Shown: positions 1,352 through 55,115 of the stretch, one piece after another
Position numbering within the stretch: the stretch's first letter is position 1
Layout: each line of letters opens with the position of its first letter
Virus record (IMG/VR): IMGVR_UViG_3300037524_002067
Coordinates: 1-64,000 of that record
Source of the DNA: a virus
DNA: 64,000 nt
Reading direction: 5' to 3' (one strand)
Notes under the pieces: generated by a model
Told to the model about the DNA's origin: nothing
What the model saw: only the letters and a program-made list of their open reading frames with translations
The model's database searches: none
Program-made: the position numbers and the translations under genes

Positions 1352-1381
1352 AAAAAAACCCCGACTTTTTTGGTCGGGGTT
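1352..1381 (-). terminator. Attenuator terminator of tRNA array 1
   Basis: AACCCCGAC-CAAAAAA-GTCGGGGTT followed by a U tract. Confidence 0.85.
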
Positions 1382-1407: not shown

Positions 1408-1515
1408 TTAATTCATGACATACCCGACCTGGCTACTAAATAGCACAAACAACACTTGCACCAAAAAGAGTGCACGTAAGCTGCGAAGGTTAGATATGTT
1501 AGAATAATTTTTCAT
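1408..1515 (-). CDS. Attenuator leader peptide 1 (MKNYSNISNLRSLRALFLVQVLFVLFSSQVGYVMN)
   Basis: 35-aa ORF between promoter and terminator; GGTCGGGT in the ORF is complementary to the terminator 5' arm. Confidence 0.75.
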   Translation of the reverse strand: MKNYSNISNLRSLRALFLVQVLFVLFSSQVGYVMN

Positions 1516-23340: not shown

Positions 23341-23374
23341 AAAAAAAAGGACCCAGATTTAAGTCTGAGCCCTT
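23341..23374 (-). terminator. Attenuator terminator of the Leu/Cys array
   Basis: AAGGGCTCAGA-CTTAAA-TCTGGGTCCTT followed by a U tract. Confidence 0.85.
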
Positions 23375-23402
23375 TTATCAAAAAAATACTTTTTATAGAT
23401 AC

Positions 23403-23516
23403 CTAAGAACTCAAACATAACGGTGCGCATAAACACAAAAAGCCATACCCTAGATCTGTTTTCACAGAAATAGATGGACTCATTGACCACGCTGTTATAT
23501 TTTGATTTCTTTTCAT
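23403..23516 (-). CDS. Attenuator leader peptide 2 (MKRNQNITAWSMSPSISVKTDLGYGFLCLCAPLCLSS)
   Basis: TTG TGT TTA TGC GCA CCG TTA TGT TTG run; GTTTGAGTTCTT can pair with the terminator 5' arm. Confidence 0.8.
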   Translation of the reverse strand: MKRNQNITAWSMSPSISVKTDLGYGFLCLCAPLCLSS

Positions 23517-23589
23517 CTTTTATAAATAAGCGGAAAAATTTCTTTTTCCAACACACAAATGTAATACTTTATTTTTTAATTTACAACAA

Positions 23590-24262: not shown

Positions 24263-24320
24263 AATTTTTCATTATAAATAGTTAGAAAATTATGAAGCTA
24301 TTCATAATCAACTAATTTTG

Positions 24321-24394
24321 TGCTCCAGCCGTGATTCGAACACGGGACCTCAGCCTTATGAGGGCTTCGCTCTAACCAACTGAGCTACAGGAGC
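24321..24394 (-). tRNA. tRNA(CAT), probably Ile2 (otherwise elongator Met)
   Basis: Loop CTCATAA; lies at the end of the Ile cluster. Confidence 0.8.
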
Positions 24395-24401
24395 TAGGAA
24401 T

Positions 24402-24653
24402 TTACTCTTTCCATTGAGTGTTTCTATTGTATTTCCAAGTTTTATATTCCCTGGTCTTGTACACATACACTGGCCTTCCACTTCCATGTCTTCCTTTTGA
24501 GCGCATGCTTTGAGGAGAACAGTCTATATAAAAAGAACCACTTCTTTTAGCACAAATGTAACAATAATCGTGATAATAATGTTTAGCGATTTTTGTATAC
24601 TCTCTGCTTGTTTTTGCTTTGTTCAGTTTAGCTCTGTTTCTGTTTATTGACAT
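24402..24653 (-). CDS. Small basic protein
   Basis: K/R-rich, CxxC, ends YKTWKYNRNTQWKE; start codon is sequestered in a hairpin. Confidence 0.65.
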   Translation of the reverse strand: MSINRNRAKLNKAKTSREYTKIAKHYYHDYCYICAKRSGSFYIDCSPQSMRSKGRHGSGRPVYVYKTREYKTWKYNRNTQWKE

Positions 24654-25294
24654 CGGTCATCGTTTTAGGGATTAACCTAACGACATCCAGATGCATATTT
24701 AAAAGTATTATTCATTTTTAAAAATTTATTTTTCACACTCAATTTCATGTTCTTCAATATCTTCAAAAGAAAATTTTTGATGGCATTTCAAACACATCGC
24801 AGAATTATTCCAATCCCAATCTGGTTGACCAAAACTATCTTCAAGCGGCTCTATTTTTTTCTTAGTTAAAGCTTTCAAGCACATCATAAAAAAATCAGCT
24901 TGCTCCTGGGTTTTGATCACCTTGCTAAGTGAAGTTTCTATTGGTTTTTCTTTTGACCAATCCACTTTTATCCCCTTAGTTTTTGCAAGCTCAATTATTT
25001 CATTAATCTTTTCTTGAACTTTTTGTTTGCTCAAATCTTTTTTCATGTTTCAAAGATACAAAAAAACTAGAACTTTAAGGTTTTAATGTAATATTTTCTT
25101 TTTTAGAATCACTGTAATAACTCACAGAATCCCCCTCAATTAATTTTTTAATTTGAGTAGCAGCGTCTTGAAAATCTTTTTTATAATGCTCAAGCTCAAT
25201 GCCACGTATAAATGTGGAACTCACAATAAGATCCACAATTTGTTCTTCTGTAATTTCTGTTTTCATAAAACAAATATAACAAATTATTTTCTTG

Positions 25295-25395
25295 TGAACA
25301 AGACGGGATTTAAACCCGTACATGGAGGTTGCAACTCATCCCTTTATCCATTCCAGCTATCCGTCTGGTGCGTCTGTCGTTTCCGCCACTTGTTC
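25295..25395 (-). tRNA. Atypical tRNA-like RNA (GAT in an 8-nt loop, very long variable region)
   Basis: Acceptor GAACAAG/CTTGTTC-A; T arm ACGGG-TTTAAAT-CCCGT. Confidence 0.5.
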
Positions 25396-25404
25396 TTTTA
25401 TTTG

Positions 25405-25482
25405 TGCGGATGGAGGGAATTGAACCCCCGACTGCTTCCCAAGGTATAAGCTTGGCGCTCTTGACCACTGAGCTACACCCGC
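25405..25482 (-). tRNA. tRNA-Ile(TAT)
   Basis: CCAAG-CTTATAC-CTTGG. Confidence 0.85.
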
Positions 25483-25488
25483 ATTTTG

Positions 25489-25572
25489 TAGTGACGGCGG
25501 GGATCGAACCCACGTTGACATTTCTGTCCCATCTTATCAGGATGGTGCCTCAAACCACTCGGCCACGTCACT
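25489..25572 (-). tRNA. tRNA-Ile(GAT) with long variable arm
   Basis: CCATC-CTGATAA-GATGG; variable stem GACA-GAAA-TGTC. Confidence 0.85.
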
Positions 25573-25652
25573 ATTTTTCCTATTAACTCTTCCACACTCT
25601 AACGTGAGTGGGTTGACAGAACTTCGGAGAGAATTTCTTCTCGTTCAGTTAG

Positions 25653-25726
25653 TAGTCATAGACGGACTCGAACCATCAACCTCCACGGTATCAGCGTGGC
25701 GCTCTAACCAATTGAGCTATACGACT
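25653..25726 (-). tRNA. tRNA-Ile(GAT)
   Basis: CCACG-CTGATAC-CGTGG. Confidence 0.9.
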
Positions 25727-26044
25727 ATGTGGGGGAAGCTTTGACATAGTGCATATGATATTGTCATCACTTTTTTATATTCCGCCCCTTCGGGTTTATC
25801 TCACATTTGTGAAAGAACGATATTTCTTAAGTTTTCAAGACTAAAATCTTGAACATTTTTTGCAAAAAACATTCTGTAGCTTTCGTTTTGATTCAAAGGA
25901 AACACTGTTATTACAACACTCCCAAATCTGGTGTGTTGTAACCAAACTCTTCTGAATCTATCTGCAAAAGAAGCAGCCAACTCCTTTTGTCTTTCATTCA
26001 TATTTACACTGTTCAAACTTTCCATTTTATTCCTTTATTTTAAG

Positions 26045-26130
26045 TCCCCCTGGTTGGATTCAAACCAACGATGGATTTTTACATCTCCATGTTAAAAGCA
26101 TGGTGCTATCGGTCACTAAGCGACAGAGGG
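26045..26130 (-). tRNA. tRNA-Lys(TTT) with long variable arm
   Basis: CCATG-CTTTTAA-CATGG. Confidence 0.85.
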
Positions 26131-26145
26131 TTATTTTATTTTTAG

Positions 26146-26218
26146 TTCCCCTGTCGTGAATCGAACACGACCAATCGCCTTAAGAGGGCGGAGCATACAG
26201 CCAGTTTGCTACAAGGGA
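26146..26218 (-). tRNA. tRNA-Lys(CTT)
   Basis: CGCC-CTCTTAA-GGCG. Confidence 0.85.
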
Positions 26219-26232
26219 ATATTTATTTTATG

Positions 26233-26305
26233 TTCCCCCGCTTGGAATCGAACCAAGCCTGAACGGGTAAAAACCGTTTGCCTACAGCCAGTTTGCTACG
26301 AGGGA
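26233..26305 (-). tRNA. tRNA-Lys(TTT)
   Basis: AACGG-TTTTTAC-CCGTT. Confidence 0.85.
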
Positions 26306-26408
26306 ATAATGATGAGATCATTGAACTCGTAGTTTACTGTACGAGCTCTTATCTTTTCTTCTGTTTATATTTGAACATTTTTTTCATTTTTATTTTTTTA
26401 TTTTCTAG

Positions 26409-26481
26409 AGCTGTAGTTCGGGCTCGAACCGAAAACCTTCTGATTACAAATCAGAGGCACCACCAATTGTGCTACTACAGC
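26409..26481 (-). tRNA. tRNA-Thr(TGT)
   Basis: TCTGA-TTTGTAA-TCAGA. Confidence 0.9.
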
Positions 26482-26491
26482 GTGTTTTTTG

Positions 26492-26576
26492 AGCCTATGG
26501 AGAGATTCAAACTCCCGATGGATTATTAGTCTCCTGCTTACAAGGCAGGTGCAATCGTTCACTATGCGACATAGGC
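26492..26576 (-). tRNA. tRNA-Thr(TGT) with long variable arm
   Basis: CCTGC-CTTGTAA-GCAGG. Confidence 0.85.
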
Positions 26577-26599
26577 AATATTTTATTTTAAAGAACTTG

Positions 26600-26670
26600 A
26601 GCCCGTAACGATTATGACATCGTGACCTTCAACGTACCAAGTTGATGCTCTCCAACTGAGCTATACGGAC
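26600..26670 (-). tRNA. tRNA-Thr(GGT) with aberrant T loop
   Basis: TCAAC-TTGGTAC-GTTGA. Confidence 0.75.
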
Positions 26671-26673
26671 TTT

Positions 26674-26767
26674 TGGGTGTACGATGGGATTTGAACCCAT
26701 GTTGTTTGCTTACGCTCTTCCTGCTTCACAGGCAGGTTCCTTCGACCATACTCGGACCACGCACACC
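26674..26767 (-). tRNA. tRNA-His(GTG) with long variable arm
   Basis: CCTGC-CTGTGAA-GCAGG; G-1:C73; encoded CCA. Confidence 0.85.
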
Positions 26768-26852
26768 ATGTTTGCCTGTTCCCGTTTCCAGTTAGAGGAC
26801 TTTGGCCAGAGTTTTTATGATGAGGAAAACTCGTAGGCAATTAAAACCAATC

Positions 26853-26930
26853 GGGGCAACAAAGAGGAGTCGAACCTCAAGCAACTAGTATATGGTACCA
26901 CTAAGGTACCTGCGCTCCACAGCTGCTGCC
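26853..26930 (-). ncRNA. Atypical tRNA-like RNA
   Basis: Acceptor GGCAGCA/TGTTGCC, T arm GAGG-TTCGACT-CCTC, GGTAC-CTTAGTG-GTACC hairpin; non-standard D region. Confidence 0.45.
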
Positions 26931-26936
26931 ATAACG

Positions 26937-27012
26937 GGTAACATATCGGGTTCGAACCGATTACCTCTTGAACCACAATCAAGCGCTCTAAACCAATTGA
27001 GCTAATGCTACC
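26937..27012 (-). tRNA. tRNA-His(GTG)
   Basis: CTTGA-TTGTGGT-TCAAG; G-1. Confidence 0.9.
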
Positions 27013-27016
27013 ATAT

Positions 27017-27163
27017 TTGTTGACGGAAATCGCACCAGCGATACGTGCTCTACCTTTGAGCTACACCCCCATTGTGAATTATTTGTGGGGGCGACGGGAC
27101 TCGAACACCGCAACCACGACTTTATAAGAGTATAGAAGTAGCATGACACATGGCCGTCAACAA
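27017..27163 (-). ncRNA. YrlA-type Y RNA (circularly permuted tRNA module)
   Basis: Terminal stem TTGTTGACGG/CCGTCAACAA; order is T arm, loop-closed acceptor CGCCCCCA...TGGGGGTG, then D arm. Confidence 0.75.
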
Positions 27164-27204
27164 TTTTTTCAATATTTTAATTTACAAAGAACGTTTTCTT
27201 TTTG

Positions 27205-27295
27205 CTCATTGGGTTGGATTTGAACCAACTTCTTCCTAGTCTAATGTTTCAAGACCAACCGACCATTCCTGCAGGGACCTTGGCCTAACCAATGA
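27205..27295 (-). ncRNA. Atypical tRNA-like RNA
   Basis: Acceptor TCATTGG/CCAATGA-G, T arm GTTGG-TTCAAAT-CCAAC, enlarged D and anticodon loops. Confidence 0.5.
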
Positions 27296-27303
27296 ATTTT
27301 TTG

Positions 27304-27375
27304 CTGCTCTGACAGGACTTGAACCCGTATTTATCTGTCTAACAAACAGTCGTTTTCCATTATTACTACAGAGCA
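27304..27375 (-). tRNA. Divergent tRNA-Asn(GTT) overlapping the HNH stop codon
   Basis: CTGT-TTGTTAG-ACAG; G73; weak D stem. Confidence 0.6.
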
Positions 27376-28139
27376 ATGTTTTTTATTTTTTCACTTACAC
27401 CTTTTTCTCTTAACTCTTCATGTATTTCTATGTGACAATTAGCGCAAACCAAAATACATTTATCTACTTCAATTTTTAATTTTTCAAAAGAATACGATTT
27501 ACCACCAATGGTGAAATCTTTTTCTTCTGGGTTTTTATGATGAAACTGCAAAACATTTGTAGACTTATTATATCCACAACATTCACATTTGCCACCTTTG
27601 TATTCTACTAACTTTATCTTAGTACGTTTACGCCATTCAATTACAGTCTGACTTTTTGTAACTGTTGGTTTTCGCACTATAATATTTTCTTCTCCAATTA
27701 TTTTCCTTACAGTTTGAACCGCTAGGCCAAAATAATAAGCTGTTTTTTTTAAAGATCTACTTTCAAAATAATGCCTTTTTAAAACATCGCTGTCAATTGT
27801 GGTTGCGTTGATATTTTTTGAAGACGCATTTAGTCTAAGGTGTGCACATATTTTTCTTAATTTATCATCTACAATTGATACTTTTTTTGAAATGCTGTTG
27901 TAAGAATCTCCAGAAATTCTCATTGCACGTATTTCACAGATAGTATCTTCTGATATATTTTTTAAAAAAACATCTTCTTTTACTTTTTTTAACCAACCTA
28001 ATGTGCCACCCAAATTTTCGTTGTTGACATGATACGAAACAGTAGATTTAGAACAACCTATTTGTTTAGAAATCTCATCAATAGAAAAACCATTTTTTCT
28101 AAGGTGTATTATTTTTTCTTTTTTAGAACCTTTTCCCAT
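27366..28139 (-). CDS. HTH + HNH endonuclease
   Basis: IGCSKSTVSYH HTH; CECCGY...LQFHH...VCANCH. Confidence 0.9.
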   Translation of the reverse strand: MGKGSKKEKIIHLRKNGFSIDEISKQIGCSKSTVSYHVNNENLGGTLGWLKKVKEDVFLKNISEDTICEIRAMRISGDSYNSISKKVSIVDDKLRKICAHLRLNASSKNINATTIDSDVLKRHYFESRSLKKTAYYFGLAVQTVRKIIGEENIIVRKPTVTKSQTVIEWRKRTKIKLVEYKGGKCECCGYNKSTNVLQFHHKNPEEKDFTIGGKSYSFEKLKIEVDKCILVCANCHIEIHEELREKGVSEKIKNIAL

Positions 28140-28199
28140 AATATTAACTTTTTATATTAATAAATAGAAAGAAAATTCTAATTTTCAATGAACGTTTTG

Positions 28200-28286
28200 C
28201 GTACCCTCCTGGATTCGAACCAGGGATGGAGATTTCCTCACGGCAGATTAACAGTCTGCTGCCTTTAACCACTCAGCCAAAGATAC
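28200..28286 (-). tRNA. tRNA-Asn(GTT) with long variable arm
   Basis: GCAGA-CTGTTAA-TCTGC. Confidence 0.85.
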
Positions 28287-28291
28287 TTTTG

Positions 28292-28364
28292 CGGGGGTGG
28301 GGAATTTCGAAATCACCGACCTCGATCTTAACAGGATCTTGCTCTGCCTCTGAGCTACACCCCC
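28292..28364 (-). tRNA. tRNA-Asn(GTT)
   Basis: GATC-CTGTTAA-GATC; G73. Confidence 0.85.
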
Positions 28365-28443
28365 ATGCATCGAGAGACTTTCACTCCCCCTTGTCTGGGT
28401 TGGAGGTCCATTCCTCCAACCCGTACATACTTTTTTCATTACC

Positions 28444-28677
28444 TTAAAGAACATCGCCAAGTTCATTTCGCAAATCTTTTTTGAGTTGTTGTCTTACTCC
28501 TTTTTTTAGTGAGCGATTTGCGTTTCTCACTTCTTCTTTTTTACTTTTACTCTTCAAGTTGCTTGGCACATCTTGAGAGTGATCTATTGACCATTTTCTT
28601 TCCTGGTTTTTCGAGAATGGGGTCATTTTTTTATGTTTACCCTCTTTCTTTACTATTACACCTTTTTGCTTACTCAT
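28444..28677 (-). CDS. Small basic protein, first gene of array 3
   Basis: K/R-rich 77-aa ORF directly after the attenuator terminator. Confidence 0.6.
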   Translation of the reverse strand: MSKQKGVIVKKEGKHKKMTPFSKNQERKWSIDHSQDVPSNLKSKSKKEEVRNANRSLKKGVRQQLKKDLRNELGDVL

Positions 28678-28707
28678 AATTTTAAAACTTTTTTGTCGAA
28701 CCTATAG

Positions 28708-28745
28708 AAAACAAGAAGGCCCGTTACTTGGTGGTAACGGGCTTT
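28708..28745 (-). terminator. Attenuator terminator of the Asn/His/Thr/Lys/Ile array
   Basis: GCCCGTTAC-CACCAA-GTAACGGGC followed by CTTCTTGTTTT. Confidence 0.8.
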
Positions 28746-28782
28746 CGGAAAATCTTTTAGCTCAAGTTTTAAATTATGCGCC

Positions 28783-28884
28783 TCATGATGTGTATCCTAC
28801 ATACCCGTATACCAACGTTTTATTAATGCATATATTATGCTTAATCGTTGTTGTTTTGGTTGTATGTAAGTTATTCATTAACAT
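28783..28884 (-). CDS. Attenuator leader peptide 3 (MLMNNLHTTKTTTIKHNICINKTLVYGYVGYTS)
   Basis: 18 of 20 core codons are N/H/T/K/I; ACGGGT can pair with the terminator 5' arm. Confidence 0.85.
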   Translation of the reverse strand: MLMNNLHTTKTTTIKHNICINKTLVYGYVGYTS

Positions 28885-28949
28885 GATTTCTTATATTTTT
28901 GTTTTTTATTGTTTCTTTTAAATAGTTAAAAAAATTTGTTTTCGAAGTT

Positions 28950-28978
28950 TTATACGCACAAAGATATATAAAGTTTCA
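28950..28978 (-). promoter_or_regulatory. Composite promoter: TGAAAC-N16-CGTA with nested TATCTTTG
   Basis: Recurrent motif. Confidence 0.7.
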
Positions 28979-30030
28979 GGTAAACACAAATATTTTTTCA
29001 ATTTTTATTTTAACTCTCTGATTAACAGATTGATATTTTTCCATCATTAGGTTCCAAAACAATGAAAATTCTACCGTCTTTATCCTTGTTCATTTGTGAA
29101 TCATAGTGATAGGCATTGTGTAAATAGGCAACATCATAAACATCTACACGCTCTGTGTCGCCTCCATTTGGTGGGATCGCGAAGTAGTGATATTCACCCT
29201 TATTATTGTGCATTTTTACTGCTTTGCGATTGTCTGGGAAAAAATCAAACTTAATTTCCATCCATTGAATCTCATATGGTTTACCAGTTGAACTGGGGTC
29301 ATTATATGAGTTGCCAGTCATGTGATGGAATGGAACAAAATCTTTATCCCTTGCATAGCCAGAATTTGGTTCAGACATTCTAAAATAAGCTAAATGATTT
29401 GCTTTAGAATCTGTATAATGTTCTTTTGGATAATAAAACAATTCCTCAAACAATGTTGTTTTAGCATCTTTTGGTCGTGGCAAAGAGTGATCAAGATGGT
29501 ATGGCTTGGCATAATAGAGAAGCATTGTGTTTTCGAGATACACAAACTTATCATCAATCCTTAACAGTGTAGAATAAGTAACTGTTTCATTTTTTTTGTT
29601 TATTTTTACATGTATCATCTTGTCACAATTATACGCCAAATTTGTGACAAGGTTACAATTTTTAGCCAATACTTTCTAAAAGATTATCTATTTCTTTTTG
29701 TGCGCAATCAGCGTTTTCAAGCAAAACATAAAGTTTGTTGATAACTCTTTTTCTATAGCTTTCCAGGGTGGACTTGTATGGCTTTGTAATTCGAAGAAGC
29801 ATTACATGTGAGTCAATAGAAAAATCTTGTTTCATGAATAAGTCGAAATACGTTTTTGTTGTATCATAATCCCTCATAAGAAGAGTTGGGACCATAGAAT
29901 CACAAATTCTATCCATTGCTGCGTCGCTATTTCCAGATAAATCAAAAATAACCGCTTCTTCTATTTCTCTGTTAATGTCAATCATAAAATTGTTTATAAA
30001 AACATAAACAAACATGGATAAAAACGAAAG

Positions 30031-54789: not shown

Positions 54790-54825
54790 AAAACAAAAAA
54801 CCCGCTCTTTTTAGGGAGCGGGTTT
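54790..54825 (-). terminator. Attenuator terminator of the Pro/Asp/Tyr/Ala/Gly/Met array
   Basis: AAACCCGCTC-CCTAAAAA-GAGCGGGTTT followed by a U tract. Confidence 0.85.
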
Positions 54826-54855
54826 GTTAATTCCTTTTGTTTGTATCACTTGTTT

Positions 54856-54984
54856 TTATCCAAGCTTTCTAAAAGTCAAAACATATCCGCTCCCATAGCT
54901 ATAATCATAAGCTGGGGCATACCCTGCACCGCCCATCATCGGGGCTGCTGGAGTAGTTGCTGAATATGTAGTTACTGTTTTCAC
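54856..54984 (-). CDS. Attenuator leader peptide 4 (MKTVTTYSATTPAAPMMGGAGYAPAYDYSYGSGYVLTFRKLG)
   Basis: 17 consecutive P/A/M/G/Y/D codons; GGGAGCGG is complementary to terminator CCGCTCCC. Confidence 0.85.
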   Translation of the reverse strand: MKTVTTYSATTPAAPMMGGAGYAPAYDYSYGSGYVLTFRKLG

Positions 54985-55031
54985 CTGTATTGTTTCTTTT
55001 AAATAGTTAGAAAAAATGTTTTTCTGAAAAT

Positions 55032-55060
55032 TTATACGTACAAAGATATGTTAAGTTTCA
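55032..55060 (-). promoter_or_regulatory. Composite promoter: TGAAAC-N16-CGTA with nested TATCTTTG
   Basis: Recurrent motif. Confidence 0.7.
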
Positions 55061-55115
55061 AGAATACGCAAGTTTTTTTTGAAAAAATCTTCTAAGTGAT
55101 TAAAAATCAGCTGAA

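Follow-up and report, generated by a model that had tools for sequence, protein, structure and literature searches.

A predicted leader-peptide attenuator matched in its codons to the tRNA array behind it in a phage genome

Leader-peptide attenuation is a classic mechanism in the control of amino-acid biosynthesis and of a few synthetase genes. In enterobacteria it can be multivalent: the thr leader contains Thr and Ile codons, and the ilvGMEDA leader contains Ile, Leu and Val codons. The pheM leader precedes pheST. T-box riboswitches, which work without translation, bind uncharged transfer RNA (tRNA) directly by means of a specifier codon together with the T-box motif. A His leader has been described in front of hisS paralogues (PMC2965389). 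Here we describe a locus in the IMG/VR virus record IMGVR_UViG_3300037524_002067 at which a short leader open reading frame (ORF) precedes an array of phage tRNA genes and lists the amino acids of that array. The window that we analysed is the first 64 kb of this 154,343-bp record, whose completeness is estimated at 59%. Judged from the sequence, the locus is likely to be a ribosome-mediated (leader-peptide) transcription attenuator placed before a phage tRNA operon. By analogy, its closest known counterparts would be the multivalent thr and ilv leaders and, next to these, the leaders before synthetase genes.

The features of the locus are collected in Table 1. Positions refer to the window unless they carry the prefix G000 (the whole 154,343-bp genome), G011 (a close relative) or an L-number (related viral and metagenome contigs). 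Codons 4–23 of the leader comprise 4 Asn, 2 His, 6 Thr, 3 Lys and 3 Ile codons, so that 18 of 20 come from the five isotypes of the array. The two codons outside this set are Leu UUA, which lies in the 5′ strand of a long helix, and Cys UGC in an inner hairpin, and both are thus structured in the predicted folds. The array was typed with ARAGORN, supplemented by tRNAs found only with Rfam and typed from alignments or by eye. Its anticodons are GTT in all three tRNA-Asn; GTG in both tRNA-His; GGT and twice TGT for Thr; TTT, CTT and TTT for Lys; twice GAT and once TAT for Ile; and one CAT. Apart from the CAT tRNA, a candidate Ile2 or Met, every tRNA of the array belongs to the Asn, His, Thr, Lys or Ile isotype. 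An initial annotation, made from the sequence alone, had claimed the same 18 of 20 codons and a sampling of synonymous codons, and our recount agrees with both, as AAU/AAC, ACA/ACC/ACG, AAA/AAG and AUU/AUA are all present in the run. Its list of array isotypes holds for Asn (three), His (two), Thr (three), Lys (three) and Ile with GAT and TAT, whereas the CAT tRNA, which it assigned to Ile, may also be a tRNA-Met. ACG is used twice in the leader, although it is rare in the long ORFs of the phage (2.8 per 1000).

We then compared the leader with the rest of the 154,343-bp genome, using an amino-acid set that was taken from the tRNA set and is therefore independent of the leader. Among 111,290 stop-free windows of 20 codons in all six frames, the leader window is the only one with at least 18 Asn, His, Thr, Lys or Ile codons. 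Based on this uniqueness, AT-richness was rejected as an explanation of the codon run.

Between the leader ORF and the array lies an intrinsic terminator with a stem of 9 pairs (28742..28719), and an independent terminator scan of the region returned a single terminator at the expected place. Region 2, the predicted antiterminator strand, is a near copy of the terminator 3′ arm. Its positions 28813..28803 pair with 28743..28734 in a duplex of 10 pairs with one bulge and an energy of -14.0 kcal/mol. The pairing of ACGGGT with GCCCGT that the initial annotation had proposed is real and forms part of this longer duplex. The next-best partner for region 2 among the arms of other units that we tested gave -8.8, and the cognate terminator arm ranked first for this leader when compared with 30 arms of other classes. 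An antiterminator duplex of equal strength was reached by 6 of 300 shuffled ORFs. The protector helix P1 pairs 28873..28862 with 28804..28793 and, together with inner helices, encloses the codon run; the fold of the leader RNA has a z-score of -4.8. A helix like P1 is also found in units A and D, two of the paralogous units of this genome (Table 1). The ACAUA motif is found again in the paralogues, where its reading frame differs, and the motif GGGUAUGU is common to units A, C and D, where unit C denotes the unit of the present leader. All features by which an attenuator can be recognized in silico are present, and the proposal in the initial annotation that the leader lists the isotypes of the array behind it, and would act as an attenuator, is upheld at that level.

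In the mechanism that we propose, transcription would start at the shared promoter-like block and a ribosome would translate the 33-codon leader. During fast decoding of the Asn, His, Thr, Lys and Ile codons, the ribosome at codons 24–34 would cover region 2, and when no ribosome is engaged, P1 would sequester it. Either way, the terminator at 28742..28719 would form and transcription would stop before the array. If decoding of any listed codon is slow, the ribosome would stall in codons 4–20 and keep P1 open; the freed region 2 (28813..28803) would then pair with the 5′ arm of the terminator, which would let RNA polymerase transcribe the 77-codon ORF and, beyond it, the tRNA genes. As the product would be tRNAs for the very codons tested, the circuit would amount to negative feedback on decoding capacity, and the phage probably makes these tRNAs only during slow reading of those codons. 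The natural trigger may be a loss of host tRNAs, a mismatch in codon usage or a lack of amino acids.

The placement of the codon run was analysed with a fold model of a stalled ribosome, in which the RNA was masked to 13 nucleotides past the A site and the rest was folded as transcribed before the terminator 3′ arm exists. This thermodynamic model leaves kinetics and pausing out of account. Placing the A site at any of codons 4–20 leads to full pairing of the 9-base terminator 5′ arm with 28812..28803; at codons 21–23 the antiterminator pairing is partial, and from codon 24 to the stop it is zero. Thus, in the model, stalling is no longer productive beyond the end of the codon run. Pooled over the 36 units introduced below, productive stall positions are enriched in cognate codons, with an odds ratio of 4.0.

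Every other tRNA array of the genome is preceded by the same design with a different amino-acid set. Promoter block and architecture are common to this unit and the four others, and each leader matches its own array. In each paralogous unit a separate terminator is accompanied by a cognate antiterminator segment, with energies of -14 to -16 kcal/mol; the segment of unit E, outside the window, matches its own terminator at -15.6 kcal/mol. The leader window of unit D scores 19 of 20 for the Pro/Asp/Tyr/Ala/Gly/Met set and is likewise unique in the genome-wide window test. For unit A, the Leu/Arg/Phe/Val composition of the leader predicted the tRNAs behind it, and in G011 an identical leader is indeed followed by Phe, Val, Leu and Arg tRNAs. 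Each isotype-grouped array would in this way have its own matched sensor.

To extend the comparison to relatives, contigs with an orthologous unit D were reached via a neighbouring ATPase, and two looser promoter patterns then led to ~100 loci in viral and metagenome contigs. Two matches to the promoter pattern, L033 and L034, were set aside as apparently unrelated. A search of viral contigs with the 215-aa and 929-aa proteins adjoining the leader gave zero relatives, and the terminase relatives L008-L013 are fragments without tRNA genes. Units were delimited by a pipeline blind to composition, which took, after the promoter, the first terminator followed by tRNAs and, of the ORFs that end shortly before this terminator, the longest one. 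The resulting sample comprises 36 non-redundant units of seven classes from this genome and related contigs. Whole-peptide composition of the leader predicted the class of the array in 33 of the 36 units; two of the three misses resulted from over-extended starts and one from a weakly biased Glu leader. Among the relatives, runs with six or seven Gln codons precede Gln-only tRNA arrays, SRWSWRSSSSS-like motifs occur in the leaders before Ser/Arg/Trp arrays, and Glu arrays follow Glu-rich leaders. The orthologues of the present leader in L142, L031, L104, L121 and L135 are rich in Asn, His, Thr, Lys and Ile and stand before Asn-His-Thr-Lys-Ile arrays. The order of residues differs among these orthologous leaders and their composition is kept.

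The two strands of the predicted antiterminator duplex change together. The sequences of region 2 and of the terminator 5′ arm differ between the orthologous contigs and their complementarity is retained (AUACGGGU:GCCCGUAU in L142, GUCGGGCU:AGCUCGAC in L031, GGUUGGGUU:AACCCAACU in L104 and UGAGAAUGGGU:GCCCAUUCUCA in L135, region 2 given first). Shuffle z-scores of these duplexes between region 2 and region 3, the 2:3 duplexes, range from -2.5 to -6.4, L121 apart. The Ser/Arg/Trp class shows two base pairs in which both partners have changed (GAGCCAGG:CCUGGCUC, GAAUCAGG:CCUGAUUC and GAACCAGG:CCUGGUUC). When one representative per class was permuted, the cognate assignment alone, 1 of 5040, reached the observed sum of duplex energies. 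Co-variation was assessed by anchored duplex energies, permutations and shuffles, as MAFFT alignments misplaced the terminator arms by one column.

Two observations on relatives concern the arrangement of single tRNA genes. In the Glu units of L059 (1008-1081), L072 and L079, a CAT-anticodon tRNA stands directly after the promoter, before the Glu-rich leader and its terminator, and from this position it would escape the attenuator. In L084 (minus strand; unit 281-400, array from 1597), a Gln tRNA heads a Phe/Val/Arg/Leu array, and the leader contains five Gln codons vs two in other leaders of its class, which hints that leader content follows array content.

Several points weigh against an attenuator at this locus or limit how far the reading can be carried. 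The U-tract after the terminator is interrupted here (CUUCUUGUUUUC), whereas the paralogues have clean U-runs, and the strength of the terminator is therefore uncertain. The 2:3 duplex is bulged and its shuffle z-score is a modest -2.5. In L121 this pairing is weak (-7.4, z = -0.6), and the Gln class also pairs more weakly. Two units of the Phe/Val class fail the simple stall model. Since orthologous units share ancestry, p-values pooled over the units overstate their independence. The terminator is separated from the first tRNA by ~350 nucleotides that include the conserved 77-codon ORF and a strong hairpin, and an unrecognised internal tRNA promoter is therefore possible. Finally, the signal of the sensor is ambiguous, because extra tRNA gives no relief from amino-acid starvation.

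We also considered other explanations of the locus. A chance ORF in an AT-rich spacer, lying beside the ordinary terminator of the upstream gene, would gain from the ~32% G+C of the genome, which favours Asn, Lys and Ile codons. Such a composition does not lead to six Thr and two His codons in a window unique among 111,290, and the ORF is kept with the same bias in five related contigs; moreover, the promoter-like block sits between the upstream gene and the leader, and the class prediction across units (33 of 36) contradicts chance as well. We therefore consider this explanation hardly credible. It also appears most improbable that the short ORFs encode functional small peptides whose transcription units are just ended by the terminator. 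The ORFs are conserved and have an N-terminal Met-Lys start in common, as such peptides might, but within a class residue order varies and composition alone is kept, this composition tracks the neighbouring tRNA genes, and at the RNA level the terminator and the 3′ portion of each ORF change in concert. The conservation of the P1 helix and of the ACAUA/UAUGU motifs as RNA, in different frames among the paralogues, would suit constitutive hairpins that work independently of translation. Such hairpins might serve as an insulator or partial terminator, or else as a structure for processing or stability that sets the levels of tRNA precursors, while the short ORF stays untranslated. This reading, which we judge very unlikely, leaves unexplained why the enclosed frame spells the amino acids of the array in 33 of 36 units, why the leader frame is the sole one of its kind in the genome, and why the residues of the orthologues drift within the set while composition is kept.

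A different alternative accepts the RNA switch and concerns its natural signal, which could be amino-acid starvation or a general slowdown of translation late in infection; the switch would then act as a timer or stress response and not as a tRNA homeostat. Charged-tRNA sensing is established for the trp, his and thr leaders. An attenuator that senses the supply of charged tRNA is blind to whether the tRNA or the amino acid is missing, and the architecture fits either signal. In all seven classes, however, the leader is matched to the isotypes of the array behind it, which a sensor of general slowdown would not require, and more tRNA is no help when the amino acid is lacking, so that we regard this alternative as unlikely. 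Tentatively, the codon-matched attenuators could instead form a modular monitor of decoding capacity, an idea that we hold plausible but far from secure. Nearly all tRNA genes would then be arranged in at least seven isotype groups with codon-matched attenuators, and the phage would replace only those host tRNAs that have turned limiting in infection, for example through host shut-off or host anticodon nucleases. The signal would be tRNA abundance and not amino-acid supply, and the system would double as an on-demand counter-defence.

Table 1. Coordinates of the predicted attenuator, the associated tRNA array and the paralogous units. Positions without prefix refer to the window.
Feature	Position	Strand	Basis or remark
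Promoter-like conserved block	28949..29001	minus	core AACTT-N8-TTTGT-N-CGTATAAA at 28975..28949; putative promoter
A-rich 5′ untranslated leader without Shine-Dalgarno sequence	28885..28948	minus	sequence
Leader ORF, 33 codons plus TGA (ATG start)	28884..28783	minus	ORF list; orthologous ORFs in L142, L031, L104, L121, L135
Regulatory codon run, codons 4-23	28875..28816	minus	18/20 Asn/His/Thr/Lys/Ile
Region 1, 5′ strand of protector helix P1, contains UUACAUAC	28862..28873	minus	minimum-free-energy folds
3′ strand of P1 (GG + GUAUGUAGGAUA), overlaps region 2	28793..28806	minus	folds
Region 2, antiterminator strand GGUAUACGGGU, codons 24-28	28803..28813	minus	duplex with terminator 5′ arm
Region 3, terminator 5′ arm GCCCGUUAC	28734..28742	minus	terminator scan, duplex
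Region 4, terminator 3′ arm GUAACGGGC	28719..28727	minus	terminator scan
U-rich tail after hairpin, with C and G interruptions	28708..28718	minus	sequence; same tail in L142
77-codon Lys-rich ORF between attenuator and first tRNA	28444..28677	minus	ORF list; kept as 85-codon ORF in L142
Perfect 10-bp GC-rich hairpin without U-run, ~30 nucleotides before first tRNA-Asn	28397..28422	minus	read from sequence
Regulated array: Asn x3, His x2, Thr x3, Lys x3, Ile x3, one CAT tRNA, with helix-turn-helix/endonuclease-like ORF and small ORFs interspersed	28364..24320	minus	ARAGORN, Rfam, Pfam
Long-arm tRNA copies	26676-26766, 28199-28286, 26491-26576, 26044-26130, 25488-25572	minus	e.g. His GTG tRNA, Rfam-only
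Unit A: leader 1515..1408 (Leu/Arg/Phe/Val-rich), terminator 1379..1359; then Tyr, Phe, Phe, cut by contig end	1359..1579	minus	
Unit B: leader 23516..23403, terminator 23372..23349; then Leu(TAA) and Cys x3	23349..23575	minus	
Unit D: leader 54984..54856, terminator 54822..54801; then Pro/Asp/Tyr/Ala/Gly/Met array	54801..55057	minus	
Unit E: 29-codon Ser/Arg/Trp-rich leader G000 77431..77342; then Ser x3, Arg, Trp x2	G000 77495..77278 (L007:5496..5279)	minus	outside window

The DNA between the terminator and the end of the array contains further elements. The 77-codon ORF, in which 23% of the residues are Lys, would be the first gene under the switch. A Pfam search gave no match for this ORF and no function for the small ORFs inside the array. 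The GC-rich hairpin at 28397..28422 may be a processing or pause signal. For each isotype of the array, a copy of 84-91 nucleotides with a long extra arm stands beside an ordinary copy; long extra arms are unusual in these class I tRNAs. A 257-codon ORF (27366-28139, minus strand) between two tRNA-Asn genes has N-terminal helix-turn-helix matches and a C-terminal Cys/His-rich region. ORFs resembling it interrupt other arrays too, and they look like insertions of the homing-endonuclease type.

The promoter-like block shows no match to the sigma-70 consensus. Further copies were found in the genome at 54988-55083, 1515-1586, G000 82390-82537 and G000 77495, and the block also precedes the leaders in related contigs. 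Ordinary protein genes carry it as well, as at L052 1560-1600 (G011 about 125,070), and because this copy precedes an ordinary protein gene, the block would represent a general promoter class of the phage group, separate from the sensor. Another copy, at G000 82.4 kb, was considered as a further leader unit and rejected, as it is followed instead by a gene for a PTH2 peptidyl-tRNA hydrolase (G000 82392..82003; L007:10393..10004, minus strand; Pfam E = 2e-8). The third codon of this gene is an in-frame TAG (ATG AAG TAG), and a relative at L037 8137-8530 begins ATG AAA AAG TAG. A tRNA with CTA anticodon, an amber suppressor, lies ~0.9 kb downstream of the PTH2 gene in the same orientation, and the in-frame TAG may be a stop-codon gate tied to this suppressor tRNA.

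ARAGORN identified 37 tRNA genes, and several more were found only with Rfam; all lie on the minus strand and are grouped by isotype. The terminase is distantly T4-like. Across the whole genome, none of the 74 long ORFs has a Shine-Dalgarno motif upstream (0/74), and the regions upstream of these ORFs consist of 50% A. Lack of Shine-Dalgarno motifs together with A-rich upstream regions is typical of Bacteroidota and their phages, and these two properties therefore point to a host of the Bacteroidota type.

If the proposed attenuators operate, the grouping of large phage tRNA arrays by isotype would have a regulatory rationale. The attenuators would also suggest that phages gauge the decoding capacity of the host one codon at a time and replenish it as needed, with the leaders naming the codons that the phage expects to turn limiting. 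The long-standing question of why phages carry tRNAs, and when these are used, thereby becomes testable, and the leaders would offer small, naturally occurring sensors that report how available an individual tRNA is.

Similarity to described leaders lies in design and not in sequence. We found no sequence or Rfam similarity to the thr and ilv leaders; at the gathering score, Rfam matched only tRNA families in the window, and Rfam models including the T-box and amino-acid leader families gave zero matches in 28380-29050 at E <= 1. Full-text literature searches, whose coverage lay largely outside subscription journals, returned no account of leader-peptide control of tRNA genes, and to our knowledge a codon-matched leader with an attenuator has not been described for phage tRNA clusters. 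Clusters of the T4 type and of large vibriophages resemble the present arrays in that tRNA genes are grouped with homing-endonuclease-like ORFs between them.

With the thr and ilv leaders the locus shares a short leader ORF, a codon run for several amino acids, a protector helix, here predicted from the sequence, and mutually exclusive antiterminator and terminator structures, with the run placed so that a stalled ribosome would free the antiterminator. It differs from them in that the regulated genes are phage tRNA genes and not biosynthetic enzymes, in that five isotypes are addressed at once, and in that the leader is one of a paralogous set which partitions the tRNA genes of the phage. The three-helix logic is that of trpL, hisL, pheL and leuL, and the poly-Gln leaders before Gln arrays in the relatives resemble hisL or pheL in form; unlike in these systems, the target is the tRNA itself, and the feedback would act on decoding capacity and not on amino-acid synthesis. 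The pheM-pheST and hisS leaders come close in another respect, as there, too, a leader peptide controls a gene acting on the tRNA of the same amino acid, although the genes governed are those of bacterial aminoacyl-tRNA synthetases. T-box riboswitches likewise use a terminator/antiterminator switch to report the state of a particular tRNA, but direct tRNA binding without translation sets them apart. Judged by its predicted architecture, the logic of attenuation thus appears to be applied here, in a virus, to tRNA genes themselves, as a paralogous family of sensors covering most of the genetic code.
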